64,000 nucleotides of DNA from an uncultured Rikenellaceae bacterium (GTDB lineage Bacteria; Bacteroidota; Bacteroidia; Bacteroidales; VadinHA17), in NCBI GenBank assembly GCA_964494045.1, contig CAZBQM010000004.1:35-64034 (forward strand), written 5' to 3'. Every line of letters starts with the position of its first letter. Position 1 is the first letter of the stretch. The position numbers were made by a program, and so were the translations under genes. Below the pieces are notes generated by a model, which searched no databases, was not told the origin of the DNA, and saw only the letters and a program-made list of their open reading frames with translations. Positions 2,385-22,751 of the stretch are shown here, in pieces.

Positions 2385-2393
2385 TCTTTTCAG

Positions 2394-2942: not shown

Positions 2943-2954
2943 TTTGAATCTGAA

Positions 2955-3833: not shown

Positions 3834-5563
3834 TACCCATAAAAGAGATCAGAGAGAAAGCCATACAGTGGCTGGGCGATGAGTACAATGAAGAGACCAG
3901 GAAAGAAGTCAGGCATATGCTTGACCATGACGAAAAAGCGCTTATTGATGCATTCTATCAGGATCTTGAATTCGGAACCGGCGGCCTGAGGGGAATTATG
4001 GGAGCCGGAACAAACAGGATGAATATCTATACCCTGGGTATGGCGACCCAGGGTCTTTCAAACTACCTTATCAGGAATTTCAAAGACCAGAAGATCAGGG
4101 TAGCTGTGGCCCACGACTGTCGCAACAACAGCCGTTACTTTGCCGAGACAACTGCCGCCATCTTCTCGGCTAACGGGTTTGAGGTCTGCCTTTTCGAAGC
4201 CCTCCGTCCCACCCCTGAACTATCATTTGCCATAAGGCATTACGGATGCCGGAGCGGTGTTGTGATCACTGCCTCCCATAATCCGCCTGAATACAATGGT
4301 TACAAAGCTTACTGGGACGACGGCGGTCAGGTTGTGGCACCTCACGATTCGGCAATCATTGAGGAAGTCCGCAAGATAAGGTCAGTAAGTGAGATAAGAT
4401 TCAACGCTGATCCATCAAAGATCAGGATCCTGGGGAAAGAGACAGATGATCTTTTCCTTAAGGAGGTCCTGAAGATGAGGCTAAATCCCGGGATTATCAG
4501 TAAATATGGCGACACGCCAATCGTCTTTACTCCCATCCACGGTACTGGCTCGACCCTTGTCCCGGACGCTCTTAAGCTTTTCGGTTTCAGAAACATAATC
4601 AGGGTACCAGGGCAGGAAGAACCTGATGGCAACTTCCCAACTGTCAAATCGCCCAATCCCGAGGAACCAGGTGCCATGAAAATGGCTATCTCCAGAGCCC
4701 TTGAGACAGGGGCCGAACTTGTGATGGCAACAGATCCCGATGCCGACAGGCTCGGACTTGCCGCCACCAACAACAAGGGTGAATTCGTCCTGCTTAACGG
4801 TAACCAGACGGGGGTGATACTCTCGTACTACATACTCTCACAGTTCAGGGAGAAAAAGCTCCTTAAAGGAAACGAATACATAATAAAGACAATAGTCACA
4901 ACCGACCTTATCGGTAAAATAGCTGAGGGCTTCGGGGTAAAATGCTATGATGTCCTGACAGGTTTCAAATTCTTTGCCGAGCTTATCAGGAAGCTTGAAG
5001 GAAAAGAGAAATTCATCGGGGGAGGAGAAGAAAGCTACGGATTCCTGCCCGGCGACTATGTCAGGGATAAGGATGCTGTCGGATCCTGCGCACTGGCAGC
5101 CGAGGCCCTTGTCTGGGCAAAAAGCAGAAACCTTAACCTCTTCGGACTTCTGTCTGAGATCTACATGAAATACGGTGTTTACAGGGAGAGACTTGTAAAC
5201 ATTGTCAGAAAAGGTAAAGAAGGAGCAGATGAGATAAGGGCCATGATGAAAGGCTACCGCGACAATCCTCCTGAAATGATCAACAACAGCAGGGTTGTCA
5301 GAATCGATGATTACAAGGATCTTATCTCAGTCAACTGCCTTTCGGGAGCAAAAAGCGCCATAAGCCTTAACAGTTCTGATGTACTTCAGCTCTTTCTCGA
5401 AGATGGATCAAAGATATCGGTACGTCCCTCGGGAACCGAACCCAAGATAAAATTTTACTTCAGCGTCAGCATGATGCCACAATCGGCAGATGACATTGAA
5501 AACACGGGAAGCCTTCTCGGGAAAAGGATAGATGGCATTATTTCTGATATGAAACTGGCCTGA
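3830..5563 (+). CDS. phosphoglucomutase/phosphomannomutase family phospho-sugar mutase (PgcA-like length)
   Basis: 577 aa. Phosphoserine loop TASHNPPEYNGYK and metal-binding DPDADR motif. Confidence 0.9.
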   Translation: MIPIKEIREKAIQWLGDEYNEETRKEVRHMLDHDEKALIDAFYQDLEFGTGGLRGIMGAGTNRMNIYTLGMATQGLSNYLIRNFKDQKIRVAVAHDCRNNSRYFAETTAAIFSANGFEVCLFEALRPTPELSFAIRHYGCRSGVVITASHNPPEYNGYKAYWDDGGQVVAPHDSAIIEEVRKIRSVSEIRFNADPSKIRILGKETDDLFLKEVLKMRLNPGIISKYGDTPIVFTPIHGTGSTLVPDALKLFGFRNIIRVPGQEEPDGNFPTVKSPNPEEPGAMKMAISRALETGAELVMATDPDADRLGLAATNNKGEFVLLNGNQTGVILSYYILSQFREKKLLKGNEYIIKTIVTTDLIGKIAEGFGVKCYDVLTGFKFFAELIRKLEGKEKFIGGGEESYGFLPGDYVRDKDAVGSCALAAEALVWAKSRNLNLFGLLSEIYMKYGVYRERLVNIVRKGKEGADEIRAMMKGYRDNPPEMINNSRVVRIDDYKDLISVNCLSGAKSAISLNSSDVLQLFLEDGSKISVRPSGTEPKIKFYFSVSMMPQSADDIENTGSLLGKRIDGIISDMKLA

Positions 5564-5597: not shown

Positions 5598-7025
5598 TCA
5601 CGATCCGAAGAAACTGTCGTCGAAGTTAACCAGGTAAACCCTGTCGGTAGCCCTCGTAAGGGCTGTATAAAACCATCTCAGGTAATCTGAAGTAATATCG
5701 GTCCTATTGAACATCCCCTGGTCGATAAAGACCCTCTCCCATTGCCCACCCTGGGCCTTATGGCAGGTAACCGCGTAGGCAAATTTAATCTGCAGGGCAT
5801 TATAATAAGGATCCTCCCTTACGGCGCTCAGTTGTTTCCTGCGGGTTTTAAGATGTAGGTAATCTGCCAGTACATTCTGATATAGCTCCCTGCTCCTGTC
5901 TGACGGCAGGGAAGGGGAATCAAGATGCAGCACATCGAGCATCACCTTCGACTCTATCTCGATGTCATAATCAGGAAACTTAAGCGACATCTCAGCAAAC
6001 CTGAAACCATATATCTCCTCATATTTCCTTATCCTTCTTACCTCAGCTATGTCGCCGTTGGCAATAAAACCCGGCCCGTCTTCCCCGTCCGCAATGCTAT
6101 AGTTGTTTCTTACAACCATAACCATGTCGCCGGTACTTATCTCCTCTTCCCTGAAAAAGATCCTGTTCCTTATTCCCTGGTTATACCTGTTTGCCTGTTT
6201 ATTCGAGTTCACCACTATGATGGTGCCTTCAAGTCCGCATTTGTTGTATGCCTCCGAAATCTCATCAATCAGGTCCTCCCCGCTGATCCGGGTTATATCG
6301 CTGAAGTCGCTGCAGTTAAGAGAAGGACGTGAAAGATCACCTGTTGCAATCTGCAGGCGCAGTGCGGTTGCATTCATCAATACTCCCGACGACTCGCTCT
6401 GCCTTACTACCTGCTTTAGTTCAGTAGTCTCAAGACCAAAGCCGTACTGACCCAGGCTGCCGGGATCGAGGGCCGGACTCTCAGCCGAGCCAACCGGAGG
6501 CAACTGGGCTGTGTCACCCACAAGAATCAGCTTGCAGTCAATACCCGAATATACATATTCGATAAGGTCATCGAGAAGTTTTCCGCTCCCAAAAAGCGAT
6601 GCATCGCCCGATATGTTGGAGATCATTGAAGACTCGTCCACAATGAAGAAGGTGTTCCTTGAGAGGTTCCTGTCGAGAAGGAACCTGCCCATGACATCAA
6701 CTGAAGATTTCTGCCTGTAAATTTTTTTATGAATGGTGAAGGCCTCGCGTCCTGAATAGGAAGCCAGCACCTTTGCTGCCCTTCCGGTCGGCGCCATCAG
6801 AACAGATTTAACCCGGAGCTTGTCGAGAGTCCTGACCAGTGAACTTATTATGCTTGTCTTTCCCGTGCCCGCGTAACCGGTAAGAAGAAAGATCCTGTCG
6901 TTGCTGTTCTCGCATATATATGCCGACAGCTTTTCGAGTGACAGGGACTGATCGCCGGTCGGAACGTTTCCCAGGTTCTGGCAAAGTTCATTGTAGATTA
7001 ATGTCTCACGCATTTTGACCGGCAT
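5598..7025 (-). CDS. short RecD-like SF1 DNA helicase / AAA ATPase
   Basis: 475 aa. Walker A GYAGTGKTS, Walker B FFIVDESSM, and a C-terminal TCHKAQGGQW motif typical of RecD/TraA-type helicase C-terminal domains. Confidence 0.85.
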   Translation of the reverse strand: MPVKMRETLIYNELCQNLGNVPTGDQSLSLEKLSAYICENSNDRIFLLTGYAGTGKTSIISSLVRTLDKLRVKSVLMAPTGRAAKVLASYSGREAFTIHKKIYRQKSSVDVMGRFLLDRNLSRNTFFIVDESSMISNISGDASLFGSGKLLDDLIEYVYSGIDCKLILVGDTAQLPPVGSAESPALDPGSLGQYGFGLETTELKQVVRQSESSGVLMNATALRLQIATGDLSRPSLNCSDFSDITRISGEDLIDEISEAYNKCGLEGTIIVVNSNKQANRYNQGIRNRIFFREEEISTGDMVMVVRNNYSIADGEDGPGFIANGDIAEVRRIRKYEEIYGFRFAEMSLKFPDYDIEIESKVMLDVLHLDSPSLPSDRSRELYQNVLADYLHLKTRRKQLSAVREDPYYNALQIKFAYAVTCHKAQGGQWERVFIDQGMFNRTDITSDYLRWFYTALTRATDRVYLVNFDDSFFGS

Positions 7026-7220
7026 GGTTGAAGCTTGGATTATTTTTATAATTTTGTATAAACTGATACAAACTTAACAATAGAAAGCATATCCTCTCCG
7101 TCATATCATTACAAATATCCGGACTGCTTTCCCGGAACATGAGGTCAGATGGTGAATAAGACCGGCAGACTCCCATGAAGGGAAAGAGAGACAGCGGAGG
7201 GCAAATTACTGAGACACAAG

Positions 7221-8063
7221 ATGGCGTTTACCGAACTGTTTGACGAGACCCTTGACATCAACGCCACCGAAAACTATGAGTTATCGGTCATGGTTGCATA
7301 TGATGGCCTCAGCTTTACCATACTCGATACTCTCAGGAACAAGTTTGTACTTATCAGGTCATATGAACCGGATGAAGGCAGAAATTTCAATGCCGAAAAG
7401 ATATCCGGGATAATAGACAGCGATGATTTCCTTCTGAGGAAGTTTAAAAAGTCCGTTGTTCAGACACCCTCCCGGAAGTCGACTGTCATTCCGGCAGCGC
7501 TCTACGATCCGGGAAAAAAAGACAGATACTTCACCTTCAACCATACCACCGAACCCGGCCAGGTGATACTCGCCAACAGGATAAACGATCCGGCATCCTA
7601 TGTCGTTTTTCAGATACCTGCTGCTCTCAGTGAAGTGCTGAACCATCATTTTCCCGGTCTCAGCCTGTACCACCACAGCAAGCCGCTTCTCTGGTATGCT
7701 TCCCGCAGGGCACGCCCGGCTGAGGGCTTATATGTACAGGTACACGTTGAGAGGGATTTCTTCACCCTGGTCATCTTTGGCAATGGCGATCTGAAATTCT
7801 GCAATTCTTTTGTTTACAGAAACATCTCCGACATAATGTATTATGTGCTGAACGCTTTCAGAAAGATGAATATAGGCCAGGAGGAAACCATTTACTTCAG
7901 TGGACGTGCGGGGATATATGACGACATCACCTCTGGATTCTCGGTGTATGTAAGAAACATCAAATTCTGCGAACCCTACGGTAATCACAGTTTCAGCTAT
8001 GTATTCAGCGAGACGGGTCTGCAGCGACACCTTAACCTTTTCAGTGCTCTGAGTTGCGAATAA
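7221..8063 (+). CDS. conserved hypothetical protein (DUF3822-like; family name recalled, not verified)
   Basis: 280-aa ORF with an ATG start and no catalytic motif that I recognise. From memory, this Bacteroidota family is commonly encoded just upstream of rsmD. It overlaps rsmD by 10 nt. Confidence 0.6.
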   Translation: MAFTELFDETLDINATENYELSVMVAYDGLSFTILDTLRNKFVLIRSYEPDEGRNFNAEKISGIIDSDDFLLRKFKKSVVQTPSRKSTVIPAALYDPGKKDRYFTFNHTTEPGQVILANRINDPASYVVFQIPAALSEVLNHHFPGLSLYHHSKPLLWYASRRARPAEGLYVQVHVERDFFTLVIFGNGDLKFCNSFVYRNISDIMYYVLNAFRKMNIGQEETIYFSGRAGIYDDITSGFSVYVRNIKFCEPYGNHSFSYVFSETGLQRHLNLFSALSCE

Positions 8064-8608
8064 TAAGCGGAAAATACAAGGGAAGGAGGATCTCTCCTCC
8101 GGGCAGTTTCAGTTCAAGGCCGACCACGGACCTTGCCAGGGAAAGTCTTTTCAACATATTGAATAACCGTGTTGACTTTGAAGGCTTAAGTGTGTTGGAT
8201 CTCTTCTCCGGTACGGGGAGCGTCAGTTTTGAGTTTGCCTCCAGAGGAGCAGAAAGTGTTCATCTTGTCGAGAAGGACTTCAGGCATATTGTCGGAATAA
8301 AAAAAGTAATAAAAGAACTGGGGATAACCGTTATCAGGCCGGTACATATTGATGTCAAAGCCTTTCTCAGGACCTGTACATCGAAGTATGATATAGTTTT
8401 CGCTGATCCTCCATACAATCTACACTGGCTGAAGGAGATACCCGAAATGGTTCTTGGAGCCGGGGTACTTAAGGAAAATGGTTTTCTTATCCTTGAACAT
8501 CCGGATGCTCTCAGGTTCAATGAGAATCCGGGTTTTTATGAGCACAGGAACTACGGAAGGGTCAATTTCAGTTTCTTTGCTCCCCCCTCTCCTTCCCCGA
8601 TAGTGTAA
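8054..8608 (+). CDS. rsmD: 16S rRNA (guanine966-N2)-methyltransferase RsmD
   Basis: 184 aa. N-terminal RIISGKYKGRRI and DPPY motif (VFADPPYN). The ORF-track start is TTG at 8054, so the exact start is uncertain. Confidence 0.85.
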   Translation: MRIISGKYKGRRISPPGSFSSRPTTDLARESLFNILNNRVDFEGLSVLDLFSGTGSVSFEFASRGAESVHLVEKDFRHIVGIKKVIKELGITVIRPVHIDVKAFLRTCTSKYDIVFADPPYNLHWLKEIPEMVLGAGVLKENGFLILEHPDALRFNENPGFYEHRNYGRVNFSFFAPPSPSPIV

Positions 8609-8661
8609 CATGCAGATATACTGCAATACATGACCAGATGAAAATTTTATTTATTCAAAAA

Positions 8662-8692
8662 TTTGGCATAATAAAAAATTGGATTAATTTTG
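8662..8692 (+). promoter_or_regulatory. candidate promoter of tRNA-Asp (-33 TTTG at 8662-8665, -7 TAATTTTG at 8685-8692)
   Basis: Both Bacteroidota consensus elements are present with a 19-nt spacer. The -7 box ends 18 nt before the tRNA 5' end. Confidence 0.55.
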
Positions 8693-8709
8693 CCACGCGT
8701 TTGAGACCT

Positions 8710-8783
8710 GGTGCGGTAGTTCAGTTGGTTAGAATATCGGCCTGTCACGCCGAGGGTCGCGGGTTCGAGTCCCGTCCGCACCG
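8710..8783 (+). tRNA. tRNA-Asp (anticodon GTC)
   Basis: Hand-folded 74-nt cloverleaf. Acceptor GGTGCGG/CCGCACC, D arm GTTC..GAAT, anticodon stem TCGGC/GCCGA with loop CTGTCAC, T arm GCGGG-TTCGAGT-CCCGT, discriminator G. CCA is not encoded. Confidence 0.93.
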
Positions 8784-8802
8784 CAAAAAGAGGTAAAAAC
8801 AA

Positions 8803-8833
8803 AAAGCCGCCTGAAAGGCGGCTTTAGTTTTTT
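8803..8833 (+). terminator. rho-independent terminator after tRNA-Asp
   Basis: aaagccgcc-tgaaa-ggcggcttt forms a 9-bp stem, followed by agtttttt. Confidence 0.7.
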
Positions 8834-8893
8834 ACTATGGCGGCATTTATTCCGCTTTAGCGGGAATAAAGGAGGACATAGTAAAAAGCGTCA

Positions 8894-8921
8894 GCTGAGG
8901 CTCAGCCTCAGCTTTGTTTTT
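8894..8921. terminator. terminator-like hairpin with flanking A and T runs (possibly bidirectional)
   Basis: gctgaggc-tca-gcctcagc forms an 8-bp stem. It is preceded by aaaaagcg and followed by tttgttttt. No gene ends here. Confidence 0.4.
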
Positions 8922-8977
8922 ACCTCTTTTTGCCAAGGTAACCCGTGGAGGAAAGGGTCCGGCGAAGCCAATCCCGT
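8913..8977 (+). repeat. 65-bp direct repeat, copy A (truncated tRNA-end-like unit)
   Basis: 63/65 identical to 9060-9124 by manual alignment. Its first 21 nt are the exact reverse complement of 8783-8803 (tRNA discriminator plus 3' flank). Confidence 0.85.
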
Positions 8978-9059
8978 ATTCTCTGTCAAAAATCCACCCT
9001 GCAGCCTGGCTCCTCGCTATCCAGACATACAATGTCTGAACTTTACGCTCAGCCCCATT

Positions 9060-9146
9060 TTTGTTTTTACCTCTTTTTGCCAAGGTAAACCGTGGAGGAA
9101 AGGGTCCGGCGAAGCCAGTCCCGTCCGCACCGCAGGAAAAACAAAA
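9060..9146 (+). repeat. 65-bp direct repeat copy B, extended by an exact copy of the tRNA-Asp 3' end (att-like; DR2 = 9092-9146)
   Basis: 9118-9134 gtcccgtccgcaccgca is identical to tRNA positions 8769-8785. The following ggaaaaacaaaa mimics the native tRNA flank. Confidence 0.85.
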
Positions 9147-9176
9147 AGCCATCCGTCAGGATGGCTTTAGTGTTTT
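9145..9176 (+). terminator. terminator-like hairpin paralogous to the tRNA terminator
   Basis: agccatcc-gtca-ggatggct forms an 8-bp stem followed by ttagtgtttt. It shares the flanks (aaaaagcc...ggctttag) of 8803-8833 but has a different stem interior. Confidence 0.5.
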
Positions 9177-9307
9177 AATATCGTCACTTCGCTGTCACTC
9201 CCTCGCCTTTTCCACCGATTCTCCATGGCGGACATAAGCTATTTGCCAAATAATCCAAATACAGTACAAAATATTATTGCCACTAAAATATTTATTATCT
9301 TGCATTT

Positions 9308-11995
9308 ATGCTTCTGACTAAACTACATATTCCTTCTTCAGGAGAGTATATTGTTCATCGTTCTGGACTTTTTGAGAAATTGAACATTGGACTGACCCGG
9401 AAGCTAATTCTCATTTCTGCTCCCGCAGGATTTGGTAAAACAACCCTGGTAAGTGACTGGATCAATCAAACCCGTATTACGACAGCGTGGTTTTCGCTCG
9501 ATAACGGAGATAACGACCCGGTAGATTTTTTAAACTATACTATTTCAGGAATTCAAATTATACATCCGGCATTCGGTCAAAACGCAATCAAACTACTAAA
9601 TTCTCCGAATAAACCATCCAGCGAATCAATAACCAGTCTGTTAATTAACGAAATACTCAATATCAATCAAAACTTTTTATTGGTATTCGACGATTTCCAT
9701 TTGATTAAGAATAATGATGTATTAAAAATTGTAAGCTATTTATTAGAGCATATTCCTGATAATATCCATATTGTAATCCTAACCCGTTCTGACCCGGCAC
9801 TATCTGTTTCAAGGTTAAGAAGTCAACATCAATTAGTTGAGTTACGTTCATCAGACCTTGGTTTTTCGGCAAACGATATTTCCGTGTTGTTCAATAAAAA
9901 GCTGAAATTAGGCTTATCTCTTGATGATGTTTATTCTCTTGAAACCAAAACAGAAGGTTGGATTGCTGGCTTGCAGTTAACTGCTATATCTATGCAAGGC
10001 CGGGAGGATGTTTCTGAATTTATTCAGGACCTGAAAGGAGATAATCGCTATATCATGGATTACCTGATGGAGGAAGTACTAAGGATTCAAAACGATGACA
10101 TCAAAGAATTTCTATTAAAGACTTCTGTTCTGGAGCAAATGTCAGCTCCATTATGTGACTCTATCCTGGATAAAAATGATAGCCAGCTGATTCTTGAGAC
10201 CCTGGAAAGAAATAACATGTTTGTTATACCCCTGGATACTGAGAGAAATTGGTTTCGGTATCATCATCTATTTGCAGGGTTATTAAAACAGAGACTCCAT
10301 CTGGGAGACAAGAAAATTATATATGATCTTCATAACAAGGCAATTGAGTGGTTTATTGATAATTCAATGCCACTTCTGGCAATTGAACATTCGATAGAGA
10401 TTAAGAACTTTGAAAAAAGCATACTATTTCTTGGAGACATAGTAGAAACTATGTGGAAAAACGGCCAGCATGCTGCTATACTGAAATATGGTGATTTATT
10501 ACCTGCTGAAACAATTAAAAAAAATGAAAATTTTTGTTTATACTATGCCTGGATATTGATAAAAGCCGGTAAAATTCAGAAGGCTGAACCTTTTTTAACA
10601 AATGCGGAAATAATTACAAAACAGATCATTGATGACAAAAGCTCGTCAGGAGAGATCATCCAGTTTAATAAAAAGTTGTTAGGGAAGATATCCGTTGCAT
10701 TTGCTTACCTCTACTCAATAGCAGCAAACCCGGAAAAAACTTTCAGCTATTGCAAAATGGCCATGGAAAATCTTTCGGAGGATGACCCCTTATGGTATAG
10801 CTGGGGATGGTACACAATTGGTATTGCAGAGTTCTCGCGTGACAACCTGAAGGAATGTATTAAAGCATTTGAAAATGCTCTGGAATATGGTAAAAAATCA
10901 GGCAACATCGATCTCTTAACTACTATTGCAAGCAGGTTATCACCCATTGAAGGCAGGATGGGGCTTTATACATCATCTTATAAGAGATGCTCCGACCTCA
11001 TTTCCTTCATGAAAGAAAGTGGGTATTCCCAAATTACAAAATCGGAATGCACTTATGCAGGAGTGTATTCATATATGGCTGGTGTTGAATCCATGAGGAC
11101 AGATTTCGATGATGCTCTCGAAAACATTAAAACTGCCTATATATTATGTAAAGACGAGGCGGATAATACAATTAAAGTGCGAGTCATAACGATGTATATC
11201 TTTACCTTATACGGACGTGGAGACCTTTCTGGTGCTAAAAAGCTGCTAAATGAGGCAGACGATATCCTGAAACAAAATATTATTTATCCCGGATCTATGT
11301 CGCTGTATATAGCTATGAAGGGATTTATGCTGATTAAACTTAATGAAATTGAAAAGGCCAATTGTTATTTTAAGGAAAATGGATTGGAATATGATAAAAA
11401 AATAACTTATTCAGATGACCTTGGTTATTATCCCTATGCTCTTTTATTAATAACCGAAAAGAAATTCAGGGAGGCGGAGATTCTTCTTTCAAAATTATTA
11501 AAATTGGCACTGGCCGAAAAAAGGATTGAGAGAATAATTGAAACTAAAGTCATATATGCAAATCTGAATAATGCCACAGGTGATAAAGCAAAAGCCTTGA
11601 CAAACCTGATTGAAGCACTGGAGTATGCCGCTGACGAAAAGATATTGATGCCTTTTATTCTTTATCATTCCGGAATAAGTGAATTATTAAATGAAGTTTA
11701 CAAAATACAGGCTACTACAAAAACCAATATCACCAAGAACTTAATAGATAAACTTAAACGGGCAATTGAAAAAAGGCAAAACCGTATTATCATCCACGCT
11801 ACAGAAGGGCTAAGTAACCGCGAAACAGATATCCTTAAATTAATTGCCGATGATTTATCAAGCCAGGATATTGCTGATAAACTATTCATTTCCCTGAACA
11901 CAGTTAAAACCCATTTAAAAAATATTTATTTAAAACTTGATGTTGACAGCCGGTTAAAAGCTATAGTTAAAGCAAAAGAGATAGGATTGCTCTGA
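9308..11995 (+). CDS. MalT-like STAND ATPase / LuxR-family transcriptional regulator
   Basis: 895 aa. MalT-type N-terminus with Walker A LISAPAGFGKTTL, a long helical-repeat middle region, and a C-terminal LuxR HTH (LSNRETDILKLIADDLSSQDIADKLFISLNTVKTHLKNIYLKL). Confidence 0.88.
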   Translation: MLLTKLHIPSSGEYIVHRSGLFEKLNIGLTRKLILISAPAGFGKTTLVSDWINQTRITTAWFSLDNGDNDPVDFLNYTISGIQIIHPAFGQNAIKLLNSPNKPSSESITSLLINEILNINQNFLLVFDDFHLIKNNDVLKIVSYLLEHIPDNIHIVILTRSDPALSVSRLRSQHQLVELRSSDLGFSANDISVLFNKKLKLGLSLDDVYSLETKTEGWIAGLQLTAISMQGREDVSEFIQDLKGDNRYIMDYLMEEVLRIQNDDIKEFLLKTSVLEQMSAPLCDSILDKNDSQLILETLERNNMFVIPLDTERNWFRYHHLFAGLLKQRLHLGDKKIIYDLHNKAIEWFIDNSMPLLAIEHSIEIKNFEKSILFLGDIVETMWKNGQHAAILKYGDLLPAETIKKNENFCLYYAWILIKAGKIQKAEPFLTNAEIITKQIIDDKSSSGEIIQFNKKLLGKISVAFAYLYSIAANPEKTFSYCKMAMENLSEDDPLWYSWGWYTIGIAEFSRDNLKECIKAFENALEYGKKSGNIDLLTTIASRLSPIEGRMGLYTSSYKRCSDLISFMKESGYSQITKSECTYAGVYSYMAGVESMRTDFDDALENIKTAYILCKDEADNTIKVRVITMYIFTLYGRGDLSGAKKLLNEADDILKQNIIYPGSMSLYIAMKGFMLIKLNEIEKANCYFKENGLEYDKKITYSDDLGYYPYALLLITEKKFREAEILLSKLLKLALAEKRIERIIETKVIYANLNNATGDKAKALTNLIEALEYAADEKILMPFILYHSGISELLNEVYKIQATTKTNITKNLIDKLKRAIEKRQNRIIIHATEGLSNRETDILKLIADDLSSQDIADKLFISLNTVKTHLKNIYLKLDVDSRLKAIVKAKEIGLL

Positions 11996-12022
11996 CTTTC
12001 TATCCTGATATCATCCTGAAAA

Positions 12023-12061
12023 ATCACCCTTAAAAATCATCCTTGAGGGTGATTTTTTTTT
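12023..12061 (+). terminator. rho-independent terminator after the MalT-like gene
   Basis: atcaccct ... agggtgat forms an 8-bp stem with a 15-nt loop, followed by a run of 9 T. Confidence 0.7.
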
Positions 12062-12106
12062 ATTGGTATCGCCCCAAATTTGAATCAGATTTTAATCATA
12101 AGAAAC

Positions 12107-12307
12107 ATGACTGGTAAAACTATAATAAAAGTTCAGGGACAGCTTGATAAGAAATGGGAAGACAGCTTTGAAGATATCGAAATTGGTTATGAAGGAACCA
12201 ATACAATCATGAAAATAACCATCAGGGACGAGTCGCATTTACATGGTATCCTGAATCTGATTAGAGATTTAAACTTAATACTTATATCAGTTAACCCTGC
12301 TGATTAA
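12107..12307 (+). CDS. small conserved protein of unknown function (66 aa)
   Basis: I take the ATG at 12107, since the ORF-track start at 12080 is TTG. The pattern IKVQGQLDKKW...HLHGILNLIRDLNLILISV matches, from memory, a widespread uncharacterised small-protein family (V.G.LD..W ... ALHG.L..IRDL.L.L.SV). Confidence 0.6.
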   Translation: MTGKTIIKVQGQLDKKWEDSFEDIEIGYEGTNTIMKITIRDESHLHGILNLIRDLNLILISVNPAD

Positions 12308-12349
12308 GAGTATCCTAAAAGGGTATTAATAACTGTCAAACAGAATAAT

Positions 12350-14770
12350 ATGAAACAACTTATTACTACAACATTGCTGATTGCAATATTCACATCACTT
12401 AGTTTTAGTCAAAAACTTGAACAAACAGTAAGAGGGACTATAATTGATAATGACAGTAAATTGCCTTTAACAGGTGCTACTGTAGTTATACCTGGTTCCA
12501 ACCCGCTCATTGGTACGGCAACCGACACAAATGGAAATTTCAGATTGGAAAACATACCAATAGGTAGAATTTCAATCAGTTTATCATACCTGGGCTATGA
12601 TGCCGTTACCATTCCAAATATTGAGGTGAAATCCGGAAAGGAGGTCTTCCTGGAACTATCAATGAAAGAATCTGCTGTAAAAATTGATGAAGTAGTTGTC
12701 AGGGCATCCAAAAAAGGAGTTGCAATAAACAACATGTCACTACTTAGCGCTCGTTCCATATCAGTGGAAGAAACAAAACGCTATACCGGAGGAATGGACG
12801 ACCCGGCACGTGTGCTTTCGAGTTTTGCAGGTGTAGCTGCAACACCCACTGGTGGCAGCGATATTATTGTTCGTGGTAACTCGCCAAAATACTTACAGTG
12901 GCGGTTGGATGGGATCGAAATTTCAAGCCCCTATCATATGAACGACCAAAACGCATCAACCGCCGCGCTTACTGCGCTAAACAATAATTTATTGACTACT
13001 TCAGATTTTTATACCGGTGCGTTTTCACCCGAATATGGCGATGTGTTATCGAGTGTTATGGATATGAAACTCCGGACAGGGAACAACGAAAAATTTGAAG
13101 CTGCCTGCGGGGTTGGTATTATGGGTACTGACCTCACAATCGAAGGTCCATTTAAAAAAGGTTATGCTGGCTCATACCTTGTAAATTACAGATATTCTAC
13201 AATTTCTCTGATTAACAAGCTTGGTATAGTGAATATCACCGGGGCAGTAAATTATCAGGACGCGACATTTGAGTTATTTCTGCCAACCAAAAATTCCGGC
13301 ACTTTTTCTGTTTTCGGATTGGCTGGATTAAGCGGCTTTACAATGGAAAATGCTTTCAAAGTGCCAGGAAAATCTATTAAGAATGCTGCCATTAGTAATG
13401 ATTATATAAAGGATAATTTTCTGTCGAACCTTGGAGTAACCCATACCATAACAATTAATAACAGAAGCTATGTTAAAACATCTTTGTCCTATTCAGCAAC
13501 AGGAATGAATGATGATGCTTTCGAGAGCAACATAATAGAAATATACAACAGTAAGGGAGACCTGGTGAGCGATTCGTCGGACAACAGGATTAAGACTTTT
13601 GAAAGCCGGATAATAAATTCGGCCTACCGTGCCGCCATTGTTTATAATAATAAACTTGATGCAAAAAATAAAATTCAAATAGGGATCAAATACACATTGA
13701 ATGGAAATAAATACAACCAGAGCATATACGATTATCAGGCTGCTGTTTTGGCTAATGTTACGGATTTTAATAACAGCATAAGCATCATGAATAATTTCAT
13801 ATGCTGGAGACACAGCTTTAACGATAATATTACCATTGTGGCTGGTCTTCACAATATGAATGTTTTACTTAACCAAAAGAGTACCCTGGAACCCAGAATT
13901 GCCATGAACTGGAAGATTAGCAAGTCAAATTCAATTATGGTAGGATACGGTAGACACAGCACCATGGAAAGCGTTCACAACTATTTTACCAGGATAAAAC
14001 AGTCCGATGGAAGCATATCTGAACCTAATATAAACTTAGATCTGCTGAAAGCCGACCATTTTGTAATTGGTTATGCAAACCATTTAAGCGACAATTTACT
14101 TGCTAAGGTTGAGGTATATTACCAACACCTTTATAACTTACCGGTAGAAAACTGTGATTCAAGTTATTATGCTACTATTAACGAAGGCACTGATTACAGG
14201 TATGTTGCGCTGGTAAACAAAGGCGTTGGAAAAAACTACGGGATTGAGATTACAATTGAGCGCTTCTTCGACAATGATTACTACTTTCTAATTAACGGAT
14301 CGTTGTTCGATTCAGAATATAAAGCGTTAGAAGGAATTTGGAGAAACACCCGTTACAATAATAACTATCTGGCCAATATTTTGTGTGGCAAAGAATTCAA
14401 AAAACTGGGTAAAAAACAGAACAAAACACTGGCTATTAATACTAAATTATTATTCGAGGGTGGCGAAAGGTACATTCCCCTCTTAAGGGATGCCGAAGGG
14501 AATGTAGCTGTCGACCCTGCACACGACAGATATTACGATTATAATAAAGCTTACAACGATAAACTTGATAATATTTTTTTATTGAACTTATCTGTAAGCT
14601 ACAAAATAAACAAACCAAGGGCTACCCATGAAATTTTCCTCGATATAATGAACCTTACCAATAATCAGTCCAGGGTATTCGAATATTTCGATCCAAACAA
14701 ACCGGACAAAGTTGGTTATGTCACCCAATTTGGTATGTTTCCAAACTTAATGTACAAGGTGTATTTTTAA
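12350..14770 (+). CDS. TonB-dependent receptor with N-terminal carboxypeptidase-regulatory-like domain
   Basis: 806 aa. Signal peptide, CarboxypepD_reg-like segment (GTIIDNDSKLPLTGATVVI...TDTNGNFRLENIP), plug region, and beta-barrel ending in a terminal aromatic (YKVYF). No SusD-like partner lies downstream. Confidence 0.85.
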   Translation: MKQLITTTLLIAIFTSLSFSQKLEQTVRGTIIDNDSKLPLTGATVVIPGSNPLIGTATDTNGNFRLENIPIGRISISLSYLGYDAVTIPNIEVKSGKEVFLELSMKESAVKIDEVVVRASKKGVAINNMSLLSARSISVEETKRYTGGMDDPARVLSSFAGVAATPTGGSDIIVRGNSPKYLQWRLDGIEISSPYHMNDQNASTAALTALNNNLLTTSDFYTGAFSPEYGDVLSSVMDMKLRTGNNEKFEAACGVGIMGTDLTIEGPFKKGYAGSYLVNYRYSTISLINKLGIVNITGAVNYQDATFELFLPTKNSGTFSVFGLAGLSGFTMENAFKVPGKSIKNAAISNDYIKDNFLSNLGVTHTITINNRSYVKTSLSYSATGMNDDAFESNIIEIYNSKGDLVSDSSDNRIKTFESRIINSAYRAAIVYNNKLDAKNKIQIGIKYTLNGNKYNQSIYDYQAAVLANVTDFNNSISIMNNFICWRHSFNDNITIVAGLHNMNVLLNQKSTLEPRIAMNWKISKSNSIMVGYGRHSTMESVHNYFTRIKQSDGSISEPNINLDLLKADHFVIGYANHLSDNLLAKVEVYYQHLYNLPVENCDSSYYATINEGTDYRYVALVNKGVGKNYGIEITIERFFDNDYYFLINGSLFDSEYKALEGIWRNTRYNNNYLANILCGKEFKKLGKKQNKTLAINTKLLFEGGERYIPLLRDAEGNVAVDPAHDRYYDYNKAYNDKLDNIFLLNLSVSYKINKPRATHEIFLDIMNLTNNQSRVFEYFDPNKPDKVGYVTQFGMFPNLMYKVYF

Positions 14771-14805
14771 TTTAAACCAGGTCTCCATTTCAGAAATCAG
14801 TTTTA

Positions 14806-14860
14806 GTGGAGGAAAGGATTTGGCGAAGCCAATCCCGTCCGCACCGCAGGAAAAACAAAA
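14806..14860 (+). repeat. DR3: 55-bp direct repeat containing the tRNA-Asp 3' end (att-like)
   Basis: 51/55 identical to 9092-9146. 14833-14848 tcccgtccgcaccgca equals tRNA 8770-8785. Confidence 0.85.
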
Positions 14861-14904
14861 TATGGCAGCGTTGATCCCGCCCAGCGGGAGCAAAAAAGTA
14901 ACGA

Positions 14905-17712
14905 TCAGTCCTTTAAAAGTATGGGCTTCCCGAATCCTACCTTTTCGAGTTCCTTAAGCTGTGTTTTGGCATCACCGGCAACAACATAATACATCCTCGA
15001 CGGATCAATATATTTCCTTGCCAGGTCAAGCTGCTTATCAACGGTCAGGTTCTTAACAAATGCCTCTTCATTCTTAATGTAATCAACCGGAAGGCCATAG
15101 TCCGAAATATTGTTCAGCATTCCCAGCAGTCCTCCAAGTGTTTCAAAACTGCGGGCGTTACCCTTCAGTAGGGCTGATTTTGTGAAATCAATATATTCCT
15201 GGGGTATGGTATCACGATATTTTTCCATCTCGGTCTTAAAAATATTGACTGATTCGAGGGTCGAATTTGTGCGTACCATCGATGAAGCTACAAATGTTCC
15301 GTAATTCCTTGCACCGCTGAAATATGATCTTGCACCGTATGTGAAGCCTTTCTCTTCTCTCAGAATGAGATTAAATAACCCGTTAAATGATCCTCCAAGC
15401 TTATAATTGGTAACATATGCAGGATAGTAATCGGCATCGGCACGTTTGATCGAAGGGCAGCCTATATAGATAACTGACTGTTTTGCACCCGGAACATCAA
15501 TAAAATATATCTGTGATTTTGCCGGAGCTTCCTGAAGAGTAATCTCTGGTAAGGCAACATTTTTAGACTGCCATTTTGAATTAATCCCCGACAGGGCAGC
15601 AACAACTCTCTCCTGGTCAATATTGCCGGCAACAATAAACTGGGCCAGCGAAGGAGAAAAGTTCTTATCATAGAAATTCTTAAGGTCATCAATTGTTATT
15701 GAGTCTACTGACGCTTCTGTGCCGACCGTTTCGATTGCCAGAATATTGTCGGCGCCGAAAATAAGTTTGTTTAATGCGTTGGAAGCCAGATAGCTTGGAT
15801 TAGCCTTGTTGCGTTTCAGATTATTTATGACCCGGCTTTTGGCAAGTGCAAACTGCTCCTCATCCCAGCGCGGTTCAAAAAGCATCTCTTCAACCAGACC
15901 AATGGTCTTTTCAAAGTTACGTGCCAGGGCGCTTACCCTTATTGTAATGCTTTCATTGCCTCCGTAAACAGAGATATTTGCCCCAAGGAGCTTTATCGCA
16001 TCCTCCAGTTCTTCCGGAGTCTTGTTCTTTGTCCCTTCATTCATCAAGGAGGCTGTCAGGCTAGCAACACCAGCCTTGTCTATTCCATCGAGAAGATGAC
16101 CACCTGAAATTATAAGCGCATACTGAACCAGCGGTAACTCGGTCTGTTGTATTCCGTATAATTTAATACCATTTGCGAGAGATCCTGTCCATACGGGAGG
16201 AATGTTTACTTCCGGATCAGGGCCTATTGGCGGCTGGACTGACCTGTCAAAAGACGTGGGGGTCTTGATAATGGTATCATTTTCAGGCAGGACATCCTTA
16301 ACTTCAGCTGCTTTGGTCACGTCTTCCTCAACAATGCCGGCATTAACAGCATTCTCAGCTATTAGTGTAACTTCTCCTTTCGGGACAAAACTTGTTTCAA
16401 CAAAATTCTTTCCTTTAATATACTTCTGATATACATTCTTAACATCTTCCGATGTCACGGACTGGGCATCGGCAAAGGATTTAGAAAAGTATTGAGGATC
16501 ATTTTTAAACATCTGATATTGTCCCAGCATGAAAGCTTTATTCAGGATGCTGCTGAACGAATTATAGAATGAAGTCTCGTTTCCGGCTTTTATTCTTGTA
16601 AGATCGTCTTCAGAAAATCCTTCCTTTTCAAACATGTCGAAAGCTTCAAAGATCGCCTTTTCGACTTCGGTAAGATTTACCCCGGGGTTTGCTGTAACTG
16701 AAATCTCGAAACTGCCGGCAAGCTCCTGTGCATTATTCCATGCAGAGACAGATGAAGAAAGCTTTTTGTCCTTGACAAGAATCTTATAGAGCGGAGTCTT
16801 TTTCCCGTTTGACAGAAGATCAGCGAGATAATCGAGAGCATAGGATTCTTTAGTCAACTGCTCAACAGTCGGGAATACGATTGTAATGCGGGGAGCCTTT
16901 GCAAAATTATCTTCATGGTAAAGCTTCACTGTTGATGAAAGAGAGGCAGGCATTGCTGCCCTTGTTTCAATTGCCTCACCTGCAGGGATCTCTCCGAAAT
17001 ATTTCCCGATAAGGGTTTTTACTTCATCTTTATTAATATCGCCGGCAACAACCAGTGTTGCATTGTTTGGAGAATACCATTTTCTGTGAAAAGCTTTTAC
17101 ATCATCAACGGTTGCATTCTGAAGGTCTTCCATCTCTCCGATTACATCCCAGCTGTATGGATGACCCTGTGGATACAGGTTCTTCAGTAAAAGATATTCA
17201 TTAAATCCGTATGGGGCATTATCCACACTCTGACGTTTTTCGTTCTGAACCACATTCTGCTGATTTGCAAAAGCTGCGTTGGTTACCGTGTTTTCGAGAT
17301 AGCCCATCCTGTCCGATTCGAGCCATAATGCCATTTCAAGAGCATTTTTGGGAATCACCTCATAATACATGGTTACATCCTGGCTGGTGCCGCCATTCAG
17401 CTCTCCACCAGCTCCCTGGATAAGTTTAAAAAGCTGGTCCTCACCAACATTCTCAGACTTCTGGAACATCATATGTTCGAAAAGATGTGCAAAACCTGTT
17501 TTACCCGGTGTTTCGCGGCTCGATCCAACATGGAAAACAATAGCTACAGCGGCAATAGGATCAGATTTGTCCTCATGAAGAATAACTGTCAATCCGTTAG
17601 GAAGAGTATACTTTTCAGACGGAACAGTAATGGCAGGTTCTGTCTTTTTTGTATTACAGGAGAACAAGAGCCCCGTAATAAGGATCAGTAAAAACGAAAA
17701 TGTCTTTTTCAT
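14905..17712 (-). CDS. M16 (pitrilysin/insulinase) family zinc peptidase, lipoprotein
   Basis: 935 aa. Lipobox LLFSC, HxxEH zinc motif (HLFEH), and a duplicated M16 active/inactive domain pair consistent with the length. Confidence 0.9.
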   Translation of the reverse strand: MKKTFSFLLILITGLLFSCNTKKTEPAITVPSEKYTLPNGLTVILHEDKSDPIAAVAIVFHVGSSRETPGKTGFAHLFEHMMFQKSENVGEDQLFKLIQGAGGELNGGTSQDVTMYYEVIPKNALEMALWLESDRMGYLENTVTNAAFANQQNVVQNEKRQSVDNAPYGFNEYLLLKNLYPQGHPYSWDVIGEMEDLQNATVDDVKAFHRKWYSPNNATLVVAGDINKDEVKTLIGKYFGEIPAGEAIETRAAMPASLSSTVKLYHEDNFAKAPRITIVFPTVEQLTKESYALDYLADLLSNGKKTPLYKILVKDKKLSSSVSAWNNAQELAGSFEISVTANPGVNLTEVEKAIFEAFDMFEKEGFSEDDLTRIKAGNETSFYNSFSSILNKAFMLGQYQMFKNDPQYFSKSFADAQSVTSEDVKNVYQKYIKGKNFVETSFVPKGEVTLIAENAVNAGIVEEDVTKAAEVKDVLPENDTIIKTPTSFDRSVQPPIGPDPEVNIPPVWTGSLANGIKLYGIQQTELPLVQYALIISGGHLLDGIDKAGVASLTASLMNEGTKNKTPEELEDAIKLLGANISVYGGNESITIRVSALARNFEKTIGLVEEMLFEPRWDEEQFALAKSRVINNLKRNKANPSYLASNALNKLIFGADNILAIETVGTEASVDSITIDDLKNFYDKNFSPSLAQFIVAGNIDQERVVAALSGINSKWQSKNVALPEITLQEAPAKSQIYFIDVPGAKQSVIYIGCPSIKRADADYYPAYVTNYKLGGSFNGLFNLILREEKGFTYGARSYFSGARNYGTFVASSMVRTNSTLESVNIFKTEMEKYRDTIPQEYIDFTKSALLKGNARSFETLGGLLGMLNNISDYGLPVDYIKNEEAFVKNLTVDKQLDLARKYIDPSRMYYVVAGDAKTQLKELEKVGFGKPILLKD

Positions 17713-17876
17713 TTCAGAGTTAATTAGGGTTATGCTGCATTTTTTATGACAATCTAAGATAATAAATAAATACTTGCGGTCAGAGAAATAAAACTAAAAT
17801 TAATCCTGATGGATAACTTAATCTTTAGCACTTGTTGTCATGTTCCTCGGGTCTTACAAAAGATAACCATTGGATA

Positions 17877-17920
17877 AAAGGTCCCGGCGAAACCACCCCG
17901 TCCACACCGCAAAAAACAAA
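17877..17920 (+). repeat. DR4: degenerate copy of the tRNA-Asp-3'-end repeat
   Basis: aaaggtcccggcgaaaccaccccgtccacaccgcaaaaaacaaa aligns to DR2/DR3 with several substitutions and small indels. Same orientation. Confidence 0.6.
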
Positions 17921-17989
17921 CGATTGACCCATCCCGGAATTATCCCACTATATTGTGAAACTCATAATCCGGGAGACCAGTGCAAAAGT

Positions 17990-18352
17990 TTATTTCAAAT
18001 TCTGTTTCTTCAACATGAAATGATATACATAACCATTCTGAGAGTCCCCGATGGTGTAGGCCTGAACAAATTCCCATCCGCTTTTTCCCATGAAGTTAAG
18101 TGCATCAACCATTGAGTTAAATACAACAGCTTTCCCCGTAGCCGGATCCTTATACCTATTGTCCTGAATTAATTTTGAAGCCTGACCAAAATCCAGCTCA
18201 ACCGTCACTTTCTTGCTAAGAATCTTCCCGGTTCCGACAATTTCACAGTAAGAGTATTGCGCAACTCCGGTGGTATCAACGATAGGATCTGATTGCCCGT
18301 AGGAAGCAATACCTGCAGACAGGAAGAATAAAATAACAACTAACCTTTTCAT
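17990..18352 (-). CDS. small secreted hypothetical protein
   Basis: 120 aa, ATG start, N-terminal signal peptide (MKRLVVILFFLSAGIASYGQ). No motif recognised. Confidence 0.6.
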   Translation of the reverse strand: MKRLVVILFFLSAGIASYGQSDPIVDTTGVAQYSYCEIVGTGKILSKKVTVELDFGQASKLIQDNRYKDPATGKAVVFNSMVDALNFMGKSGWEFVQAYTIGDSQNGYVYHFMLKKQNLK

Positions 18353-18683
18353 AATCTTGTGTTTTCAGTAAAGTATAAAGAATTAAATATTTGTTTGAAT
18401 TCAGATGATCTGCCCGTCTATTGGTTAATCGAAGATAATACATATGTTGAATAATAATGCCTGGGATAAACGTAGAAAGCCAAAGATTAAGAAGATGAAT
18501 TCGTAGTTCCTTTTATCCGAATCACCAAGGCCTCAACCAGTGGACCTTTAACTCCTGCAGATGCTTCGGTCAGCGCAGCATATCCACACCCATGGCGAAA
18601 GCGTGAGAATGACCATCTGTTCTTTAAAGTTTCAGATCCTGGTTAATAATATTTTGTACCTTAGGCATTTATTTTTAATCATC

Positions 18684-20618
18684 ATGGGAGGGCAGAATAC
18701 AATACCCGGCTGCCATCGGGATGAGAGTGAAATAGGATATCAGGCTATCTTCAACCATAGTTTTGATGGCATCCTGCTCACTATTCCTGATGGAAGGATT
18801 CTGGCAGCCAATCCTGCGGCATGCAGGATGTTCGGACGAAGTGAGGAGGAAATCTGCAGGCTGGGCCGTAACGGTTTAATAAATCTGGATGATCCGGGAC
18901 TACTGCCGGCCCTTTCACAGCGTGAACGTACGGGTGAGTTTTCCGGTGTTCTCACAGGTCGTCGGGCGGATGGGACAATCTTCCCTTTCGAGTTGTCTAC
19001 CTCTGTTTTTACTGACATGTCGGGTGAACTCAGATCGAGCATGATTATACATGATATCTCCGATCAGGAAAAAAGCAATCAGAAACTTCGCACAACAGAG
19101 ATGCTGCTGCAAAGTATTATTTCCAATGTTCCACTATCTATTATTTCAACCGACAAAAACGGGATTATTACCCTGCTGGAAGGCAGGAGACTTAAAGAAG
19201 TAGATCTTAGGCCTGGTGAATATGTAGCCACTTCTGCATATGATATTTACGGTTCCAGGTCTTATACAGAACCATCTGGAGAGACAATAAGTGGAAAGGA
19301 AGTCATTGACCGTGTTCTTTCCGGTGAAAACATGGTCGTGTCAAATGAATTCAAGGGATACTATTTTGAAAATCACCTCGGTCCTATAACTGACGAAAAT
19401 GGTGAAATTACAGGTTCTGTTGGCCTTGTGCTCAACATCTCTGACCGGAAAAAAGCCGAACTAGAGAAGGAAAAAAGTGAGATGAAGTACAGGGATCTTC
19501 TTGAAAAAGCAGTAGTCCCGATCTGGGAGAAAGATTATTCTGAAGTAAAGAAGTTCATTGACAAATTGCGGAAAAAGGGAGTCAGGGACCTAAGGAAATA
19601 CTTTAGTGAATACCCTGAGCATGCAGCATATTGTGTCTCCCTGGTACAAACCACATTTATTAACCAGCCGGGACGGAAGTTTTTTGGCATTAAGGAAAAA
19701 CAGGATCTGAATAAGGATCGCGGATACTTGCTGACTGATAAAAATCTGAAGTTTTTCATTGAAGAGATAATAGTACTTACCGAGGGCAAAAGAGAGTATG
19801 ACTGTGATCTGCCAATAACCCTGCTCTCAGGTCAGGAGAAAAATGTACACCGGAAAGCATACGTAATATCCGATAAGGCCGATAACCTGTCACAGGTTCT
19901 GGTCTCGTGTATTGATCTTACCGACCGCATAAACTATGAAAATGAACTATTAAAATCGGGCGAAACTCTCAGACGGCTCAATATGTATATTGAAGAAGCC
20001 AGGGAAAAAGAAAGATCACATATTGCCATGAACCTGCATGACGACCTTGGGCAGAAACTAACTGCCTTAAAGATGAATCTTTCATGGCTGAAAAAAAGGA
20101 TCGGGGTTCAGTCCGACCTGGTATCTGATAAGCTTGAGGAAATAGGACATATAATTGATAGCTCAATATCTACTGTTCAGACAATATCTTCTGAACTCAG
20201 ACCAACCATTCTGTACGATCTGGGGCTAAAGGAAGCTATTGAATGGCATCTGAAACATTACCTTGAACCTGCCGGGATAAAGTGTTCCTTCAGAATGTCG
20301 CCCGCTGACCTCAGAATTGATGAGCACAGATCTATTGTACTGTTCAGGGTGGTACAGGAATCTCTGACCAATGTTATAAGGCACTCCGCAGCTAAAAATG
20401 TATCGATAACAATAACAGGATCCGTTTCATTCATCCAGCTTGTTATCAGGGACGATGGTAAAGGAATAAATGCTGAAGCCATTAATAATCCTGAATCTTT
20501 GGGAATCGCAAGCATGAAGGAGAGAGTAAAAAGCATTTCAGGCGATTCCTGCATAACAGGTACTGAAGGTCATGGCACCATGATCACCGTGAAAATACCT
20601 TTATCTAAAAACAATTGA
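18684..20618 (+). CDS. PAS-domain sensor histidine kinase (HisKA_3 / NarX-type)
   Basis: PAS-like repeats, H-box HIAMNLHDDLGQKLTAL, and a C-terminal HATPase_c. I prefer the ATG at 18684, because the ORF-track extension from 18561 translates to non-protein-like sequence. Confidence 0.85.
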   Translation: MGGQNTIPGCHRDESEIGYQAIFNHSFDGILLTIPDGRILAANPAACRMFGRSEEEICRLGRNGLINLDDPGLLPALSQRERTGEFSGVLTGRRADGTIFPFELSTSVFTDMSGELRSSMIIHDISDQEKSNQKLRTTEMLLQSIISNVPLSIISTDKNGIITLLEGRRLKEVDLRPGEYVATSAYDIYGSRSYTEPSGETISGKEVIDRVLSGENMVVSNEFKGYYFENHLGPITDENGEITGSVGLVLNISDRKKAELEKEKSEMKYRDLLEKAVVPIWEKDYSEVKKFIDKLRKKGVRDLRKYFSEYPEHAAYCVSLVQTTFINQPGRKFFGIKEKQDLNKDRGYLLTDKNLKFFIEEIIVLTEGKREYDCDLPITLLSGQEKNVHRKAYVISDKADNLSQVLVSCIDLTDRINYENELLKSGETLRRLNMYIEEAREKERSHIAMNLHDDLGQKLTALKMNLSWLKKRIGVQSDLVSDKLEEIGHIIDSSISTVQTISSELRPTILYDLGLKEAIEWHLKHYLEPAGIKCSFRMSPADLRIDEHRSIVLFRVVQESLTNVIRHSAAKNVSITITGSVSFIQLVIRDDGKGINAEAINNPESLGIASMKERVKSISGDSCITGTEGHGTMITVKIPLSKNN

Positions 20619-20621
20619 CTT

Positions 20622-22723: not shown

Positions 22724-22751
22724 TGAGAATGGATTGTAATACCTGCTTAAG

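Follow-up and report, generated by a model that had tools for sequence, protein, structure and literature searches.

In Bacteroides, the mobilizable transposons NBU1 and NBU2 integrate at the 3′ ends of tRNA-Leu and tRNA-Ser genes, where they form direct repeats of 13–14 bp or more, and NBU elements encode their own tyrosine integrase, mobilization protein and oriT. Other mobile modules carry no recombinase of their own: the pdif modules of Xer-dependent elements and the cassettes of integrons are bounded by short sites and moved by a recombinase encoded elsewhere. Tandem accretion at transfer RNA (tRNA) genes has been described together with cis-mobilizable elements (CIMEs), for example among Streptococcus elements related to the integrative and conjugative elements (ICEs) ICESt1 and ICESt3 (PMC5704250). 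In Dehalococcoides, low-GC islands lie in tandem downstream of the tRNA-like gene ssrA, each bounded by a repeat of about 20 bp of its 3′ end; every repeat is immediately preceded by a conserved motif that does not belong to the gene, the insertion point was inferred to lie in the T-loop region, and whereas most islands have a module with a CcrB-like large serine recombinase, some have no integration module and were called possible CIMEs (PMC3146451). Our literature search found no report of integration at tRNA-Asp in Bacteroides. Here, we analyze a 64,000-nt stretch of DNA (henceforth termed the window) from an uncultured Rikenellaceae bacterium (assembly GCA_964494045.1, contig CAZBQM010000004.1, positions 35 to 64,034), in which an AT-rich islet of about 5.7 kb lies downstream of a tRNA-Asp gene. 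We hold, with moderate confidence, that the islet is non-autonomous and CIME-like, one unit of a tandem array at a tRNA-Asp integration hot spot, which it would have entered by recombination between structured repeats that end in a copy of the tRNA 3′ end.

The array is built around a short sequence of the tRNA gene, which is the only tRNA that ARAGORN and Rfam find in the window. The last 16–17 nt of tRNA-Asp (8769–8785; GTCCCGTCCGCACCGCA), here termed the core, recur at unit boundaries, with an exact copy at 9118–9134 and a 16/17 copy at 14832–14848; in shuffled sequence, 0 matches to the 17-mer are expected. A preliminary description of this DNA, made from the sequence alone, had reported both copies, and also that they lie inside two 55-nt direct repeats (9092–9146 and 14806–14860) with the orientation of the tRNA. 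Both reports were confirmed, the distal core copy beginning at 14832 and the repeats being identical at 51 of 55 positions (93%), with a longest perfect identity of 28 nt. We use R for the left arm of 26–37 nt that precedes a second core, R1 and R2 for the proximal and distal copies, and N for the spacer between tRNA and R. The preliminary description had missed further features: a truncated third copy of the left arm (R0, 8934–8977); the 147-nt tandem duplication in which it lies (8900–8977 versus 9047–9124, 94% identical); a 21-bp perfect inverted repeat between the tRNA trailer (8783–8803) and 8913–8933, present again at 9060–9080; and, at the distal end, a copy of the post-tRNA hairpin hp2. 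The locus is a tandem array with 3.5 core copies (Table 1).

The DNA between the 55-nt repeats is foreign in composition. Its GC content (9147–14805) is 36.5% against 45.3% in the rest of the window, which makes it the lowest 5.66-kb stretch present, other stretches of this length ranging from 40.9 to 51.6% (standard deviation 2.7), and it is also the strongest tetranucleotide outlier, with a distance of 0.35 against a median of 0.14. These sliding calculations bear out the direction of the contrast seen before by hand counting, whose figures of 25–37% inside and 45–60% outside overstate it. Third-position GC content (GC3) of the three cargo genes is 0.34–0.38 compared to 0.41–0.58 elsewhere. 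Pfam and NCBIfam agree with the initial assignment of these genes to a regulator, a small protein and an outer-membrane receptor, and all three are full length relative to their homologs (895, 66 and 806 aa). The receptor belongs to a family common across Bacteroidales (hundreds of homologs at 65–73% identity), and the regulator–small protein–receptor trio is itself a conserved, widespread operon, carried for instance by L025 (related loci are given L numbers throughout) at 72% nucleotide identity over window positions 9286–14771. The nearest copy, in L024, is 87% identical at the amino acid and 89% at the nucleotide level over 11947–14779 and lies on a contig of 36% GC. Its identity to the window stops 9 nt past the receptor stop codon and the operon there goes on with further genes, which indicates that the window copy was cut just after the receptor gene.

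To its left, the operon is bordered by only ~107 nt of non-homologous DNA, and to its right by ~35 nt, including ~26 nt before R2 that match nothing among the relatives' loci compared. The open reading frame (ORF) map holds no pseudogene or spare ORF space between the repeats. Limits this tight around a plain operon leave no room for a decayed or lost integrase, and the suggestion that the islet is a decayed element becomes unlikely; the cargo is a tight, intact operon from a lower-GC (~36%) lineage. Recombinase genes are also absent from the wider window. Pfam detects no integrase, transposase, resolvase or relaxase in 31 of the 35 non-overlapping ORFs of at least 150 aa, and the other four (1491–5563) correspond to sugar-nucleotide enzymes, their orthologs in L013 (81% DNA identity) being rhamnose-pathway enzymes and phosphoglucomutase. 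This agrees with the earlier reading of the ORFs; between the repeats there are only the three intact cargo genes, and no element-encoded integrase lies near the putative attachment (att) ends.

Table 1. Features of the tRNA-Asp locus, in window coordinates (aa, amino acids; hp, hairpin; P1, the long helix of spacer N).
Feature	Position	Strand	Description
tRNA-Asp(GTC)	8710–8784	+	ARAGORN; Rfam tRNA, 70.9 bits
Spacer N	8783–8933	+	P1 5′ arm/trailer 8783–8803; hp1 8803–8825; hp2 ~8837–8875; hp3 8893–8913; P1 3′ arm/anti-trailer 8913–8933
R0	8934–8977	+	Conserved left arm (CAAGGTAACCCGTGGAGGAAAGGGTCCGGCGAAGCCA) and first 7 nt of core; ends after AATCCCGT
69-nt segment between R0 and second unit	8978–9046	+	Origin unassigned
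Second unit	9047–9134	+	Duplicate of hp3 3′ half and anti-trailer 9047–9080; R1 = left arm 9081–9117 and complete core 9118–9134
tRNA-trailer-like sequence and terminator-like hairpin hp1′ (9145–9168)	9135–9178	+	Alignment, terminator scan
AT-rich cargo	9179–14805	+	Promoter region, three genes, ~26 nt of unassigned origin (14780–14805)
MalT/LuxR-type regulator	9308–11995		AAA, TPR_MalT and GerE domains; NCBIfam MalT, E = 1.6e-116
Small protein, 66 aa	12107–12307		75 aa from TTG at 12080; no family match
CarboxypepD_reg/Plug TonB-dependent outer-membrane receptor	12350–14770		Pfam
R2	14806–14861	+	3′ 26 nt of left arm, three hairpin substitutions (GGATTTGGC); core 14832–14848 (16/17); 13 nt trailer
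Native post-tRNA hairpin hp2 copy (ATGGCAGCGTTGATCCCGCCCAGCGGGAGC)	14862–14897	+	89–94% identity to L005 hp2
M16 peptidase gene	14905–17712	−	Right of hp2 copy

The 69-nt segment between R0 and the second unit has no match among the relatives' loci compared; it contains a small hairpin (CAGACATACAATGTCTG) and may be all that is left of a further inserted unit. At the distal end, the hp2 copy is terminator-like on the minus strand and adjoins the 3′ end of the M16 peptidase gene. The right side of the array (14905–28400) encodes this peptidase, a 120-aa protein, and PAS/histidine-kinase and response-regulator proteins at a GC content of ~0.38–0.45, compared to 0.45–0.50 on the left.

The preliminary description had taken the repeats for attL and attR, the classical products of integration into the tRNA gene. 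The proximal copy is located 349 nt past the tRNA, and comparison with related loci suggests another origin for it. Wherever upstream sequence is visible, the layout is tRNA-Asp, the trailer and three hairpins of N, the left arm CA(A/G)GGTAACCNGTGGAGGAAAGGGTCCGGCGAAGCCA of R, and a second core that consists of the last 14–17 nt of the tRNA. R followed by core occurs downstream of tRNA-Asp in L004, L005, L007, L009 and L010, and R lies ~150–190 nt downstream of the gene in relatives with or without an island. The window is colinear with these loci from the tRNA to R0 at 73–79% identity, while R itself is ~100% conserved; R0 is 100% identical to L002 over 44 nt and aligns with the relatives' R at the orthologous position. 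Since the proximal repeat sits where relatives carry R without an island, it is not a product of this insertion. The 55-nt repeats are thus not attL and attR from one integration into the tRNA, the proximal copy belonging to a conserved N and R module. What stands of the earlier interpretation is that copies of the tRNA-Asp 3′ end enclose foreign DNA that carries no recombinase: its observation was confirmed, and its interpretation is partly supported. Pattern scans for the left arm plus core gave no site in IMG/VR; among 185,579 species genomes they gave 3 sites, in 2 metagenome-assembled genomes (MAGs), and in the metagenome collection 5 true ones, and across the window and whole-collection scans the unit was located solely at tRNA-Asp loci of a few Bacteroidales.

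The module is also conserved in its fold. In the window (8783–8933) and in L004, L005, L007, L009, L017 and L002, N is seen to form a long helix, P1, around three hairpins. Covariation over seven genomes and 31 pairs gives 87.6% paired against 45–53% when partners are slid, with compensatory changes in 15 of the pairs, a level reached by 0 of 500 shuffles. The trailer and anti-trailer arms of P1 are wholly different between genomes, yet complementary: cognate arms have a mean of −22.7 kcal/mol versus −10.7 for non-cognate arms, a result matched by only 1 of 5040 permutations. In a terminator scan, hp1 and hp3 resemble bidirectional terminators, so that a transcript across P1 would need read-through. 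R shows corresponding behavior, as substitutions in R1, R2 and L006 restore pairing in its hairpin, and in L017 its central GGC-GAA-GCC hairpin is swapped for a longer one. The pattern of wobble pairs is such that different stems of R favor opposite strands. Because the pairing signals conflict between stems, we adopted neither a tRNA-like T-arm or minihelix nor a minus-strand small RNA as a reading of R. With Rfam 15 covariance models over N, R and the right arm, the tRNA alone passes the gathering score, and matches to Phe_leader and DUF3577 over the terminator hairpins are below threshold. We consider N a candidate new structured RNA or DNA element beside tRNA-Asp. L017 additionally contains, at 9770–10020, a 110-nt variant R unit in 2.5 tandem copies, the last, partial one of which runs directly into the start of a conserved small ORF (119-aa form).

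Relatives further show that the core behaves as a junction. L012 is 96% identical to window positions 7130–8784, and the identity ends exactly at the last base of the tRNA (8784); past it follow a hairpin, four GCCACAAAAT repeats and a conserved 135-aa ORF. L009 shares this left end: placed after the tRNA core, it opens a 4.2-kb element comprising the conserved small ORF, an AbiE toxin–antitoxin pair and a small serine recombinase gene, after which come a second core and then native N and R. The MAG contig CAVUAX010000003 (L014) contains ~15 kb between two 298-nt repeats that are 98.7% identical and read core, N, R, core, right arm. In these three relatives the tRNA-Asp end is a real integration junction, and the core-bounded segments of L009 and the MAG measure 4–15 kb. 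R is, moreover, truncated at the same core position in two genomes: R0 of the window ends after AATCCCGT and R of L010 after AATCCCG. In L010 (~5990–6150), tRNA-Asp is itself cut in the T-loop, between GGTTCGAGT and GCGGCG, and ARAGORN finds no tRNA there; at these cuts in tRNA and R, either the core was truly rearranged or the assembly is defective.

Each relative examined has different genes downstream of the locus, which identifies tRNA-Asp as a hot spot with several occupant classes. One of them is viral: a 92-kb prophage (IMGVR_UViG_3300002220_000740; L032 1–1446, L039 3157–3232) is integrated in the same tRNA-Asp of a host that carries N. The tRNA borders the prophage on one side and 45 nt of the tRNA's 3′ part are repeated on the other; a tyrosine integrase adjoins attR, and the free-phage attP form occurs in another viral contig, IMGVR_UViG_3300037486_000490 (L038). 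Another class is a recurring module that consists of a hairpin, 3–4 GCCACAAAAT repeats, an ORF of ~136 aa, a toxin–antitoxin pair (AbiE or HipBA) and a small serine recombinase (L012 1657–2481; L009 5837–5004; L014 10001–13420; L026 343–3270). The ~136-aa ORF has 206 homologs and no Pfam match; neither it nor the GCCACAAAAT right arm, the markers of this other element type at tRNA-Asp, is present in the window. In L016 (9293–9700, 15735–20411), core, GCCACAAAAT arm and small ORF lie ~215 nt downstream of tRNA-Pro(CGG) rather than tRNA-Asp, and this element includes homologs of the cargo regulator (52% aa identity) and small protein (64%) in opposite orientation. In L026-type contigs, an intact small serine recombinase adjoins BREX genes.

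An assembly chimera was rejected as the source of the arrangement: an independent Logan contig (SRR8925774_152244; L001), 100% identical to window positions 9137–19888, runs from the receptor gene across R2 into the M16 gene, and its left end reaches the core. That left end consists of core, tRNA-type trailer and the island-side hairpin (L001 10753–10768; window 8780–8806 joined to 9153). It thereby equals the window minus 8807–9152, a stretch of 346 nt between two AAAAACAAAAAGCC 14-mers that holds hp1–hp3, R0, the 69-nt segment and R1. The left junction of the islet is thus structurally polymorphic, and in SRR8925774 the islet would abut the tRNA directly.

Taken together, these features suggest how the array could have formed. 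Across 8785–14897, each segment boundary would carry a core copy, and the tRNA core and the R core would both serve as junctions for inserted DNA. An incoming 5.7-kb operon unit would have brought its own diverged R2 and a left end made of trailer plus terminator, and would have entered by recombination of an incoming with a resident R/core. This could have been a site-specific reaction, catalyzed by a recombinase whose gene lies elsewhere, or else homologous exchange of the Campbell type that used 28–55 nt of identity; the exchange point would probably fall within the 38-nt stretch between GGCGAAGCCA and the trailer. Both R copies have the form expected of such an exchange. R1 is chimeric, its left side being of the resident type that pairs with its own trailer and its right side resembling the trailer and terminator of other lineages: 9135–9178 is closer to the native trailer and hp1 of relatives than to the window's own, and 9117–9181 is 82–87% identical to the tRNA end, trailer and hp1 of L005, L009 and L004. 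In R2, the left arm has diverged but its three substitutions preserve the hairpin, and the right side matches native hp2.

Several observations weigh against this proposal. We found neither an empty site nor a circular junction, nor a second place in a genome where the islet occurs, so that its mobility, like its mode of entry, is something we infer. No contig shows R followed directly by hp2 and the M16 gene; exact-protein look-ups with the M16 peptidase, the regulator and RsmD returned the same Logan contig or nothing; and at the tRNA end of L012 another element is in place, not an empty site. An empty site with tRNA-Asp followed directly by the M16 gene, as envisaged in the preliminary description, did not turn up, and M16 is not beside tRNA-Asp in any relative examined. 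As the 14.9–28 kb side is in addition lower in GC than the left side, what we treat as the chromosomal flank may be an older island. R2 lacks the 5′ part of the left arm and is separated from the cargo by ~26 nt, a state that an illegitimate join would produce as readily as a clean att site, and the right flank has no hp1, leaving a simple P-O-B′ prediction incompletely borne out. Finally, a recombinase with specificity for the 17-nt core did not come to light. The sole recombinase near core-bounded elements is a small serine enzyme of the resolvase type (209 aa). Its gene is broken up in L009 and the MAG and survives as a 47-aa fragment in L017, while L026, where no core is nearby, has it intact (209 aa, YSRVSS motif).

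The lack of a recombinase is also compatible with a plain horizontal transfer fixed by RecA rather than a mobile element, in which a donor fragment with R-like sequences recombined with the resident tRNA-Asp/R locus through short homologies and the repeats are a by-product that no site-specific recombinase uses. We regard this as possible, if the less probable course. The cargo is an ordinary operon that is widespread in Bacteroidales, R1 and R2 share the 28 nt of perfect identity noted above, R copies duplicate in tandem in the absence of cargo (the 147-nt units of the window and the 110-nt units of L017), and the Logan variant resembles a deletion between the 14-nt AAAAACAAAAAGCC repeats, not between cores. 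However, the relatives' insertions start exactly at the core, and in two genomes R breaks off at one and the same core position; homologous exchange alone leaves unexplained why unrelated cargos abut the same 16–17 nt.

The remaining alternatives differ in what they take the repeats to be. If the islet were the remnant of an autonomous, integrase-bearing island or integrative and mobilizable element (IME) in tRNA-Asp that became fixed when its integrase was deleted, the classical direct repeat of a tRNA 3′ end around foreign DNA would be accounted for; recombinase genes have decayed in the neighboring element types of relatives, and tandem decayed elements are common at tRNA sites (PMC5704250). 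This is unlikely in view of a homology to ordinary chromosomal operon copies that spans 9286–14779, and of three full-length genes with no pseudogene or spare ORF space around them. Somewhat more doubtful again is that N and R are primarily a structured RNA or DNA with a host function, such as processing, termination or a small RNA, and that the operon landed between tandem duplicates of it. The strong covariation in N, the invariance of R where neighboring DNA is only 70–80% identical, the longer central hairpin of L017 and the pairing-restoring substitutions in R1, R2 and L006 are what such a module would display. The terminator-like hp1 and hp3 with the read-through they impose, the opposite strand preferences of the wobble pairs and the lack of an Rfam match speak against it, and foreign DNA that starts at the core is left unexplained; a host function would in any case be compatible with entry by R/core recombination rather than exclusive of it. 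That the 55-nt unit is a generic intergenic repeat of the repetitive extragenic palindromic (REP) or miniature inverted-repeat transposable element (MITE) kind, next to an island by coincidence, is highly improbable. It shares with such families only its hairpin potential; all copies in the 64 kb lie at 8934–9146 and 14806–14860 within the tRNA-Asp locus, and the collection scans match only tRNA-Asp loci of few Bacteroidales, so that the dispersed family entertained in the preliminary description is rejected for the window and for the viral, genome and metagenome collections searched.

Islands without a recombinase that lie at tRNA genes are usually written off as decayed, whereas here a strongly conserved, structurally constrained repeat occurs lineage-wide together with an intact operon. 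A more far-reaching idea, which we consider rather unlikely, is that N and R are a landing pad, whose second core would let a recombinase encoded elsewhere insert, stack and exchange operons while sparing the essential tRNA. If so, Bacteroidales would possess a capture platform comparable to integrons or pdif modules, in which recombinase-less units such as this operon pass between genomes by R × R recombination. Should a recombinase acting on N and R exist, uncultured Bacteroidales could swap regulator–receptor (nutrient-uptake) operons at a fixed site; even without one, the combination of tRNA core and R marks strain-variable DNA in these genomes.

Among described systems, the islet resembles a CIME in being a segment between attL/attR-like repeats of a target gene's 3′ end that retains no integration or transfer genes and lies in tandem with others at one site; by analogy, its mobilization would depend on a recombinase from another element. 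A CIME is, however, defined as a decay product of an ICE or IME, and no such descent was found: the islet is a tight, intact operon without a mobility-gene remnant, and there is no integrase-bearing partner within 64 kb. The likeness is greatest to the Dehalococcoides ssrA islands, which share tandem low-GC DNA, 3′-end repeats, an upstream motif and, in some cases, the lack of an integration module; unlike there, R is present in relatives even without an island and is embedded in a structured spacer. NBU1 and NBU2 belong to the same phylum and likewise produce a direct repeat of a tRNA 3′ end, whereas their integrase, mobilization protein and oriT have no counterpart in the islet. More generally, the islet shares the tRNA 3′-end repeat and foreign composition of integrase-bearing islands and encodes no recombinase. 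The tRNA-Asp prophage occupies the same tRNA, whose 3′ end is identical, and its host likewise carries N, but the prophage spans 92 kb, has a tyrosine integrase by attR, a 45-nt identity block that starts from the anticodon loop, and an att left arm unrelated to R. Similarity to pdif modules and integron cassettes would be one of working only, as units bounded by one short site with hairpin potential around a variable center; on reading, R shows no dif-like or attC motifs (RYYYAAC/GTTRRRY boxes), the window scan gave no IntI and there is no attI, and the islet carries its own regulator gene with an upstream/promoter region, unlike an integron cassette. The arrangement is therefore of a known kind, and what distinguishes it is the resident structured N and R module and a cargo that is a plain operon.

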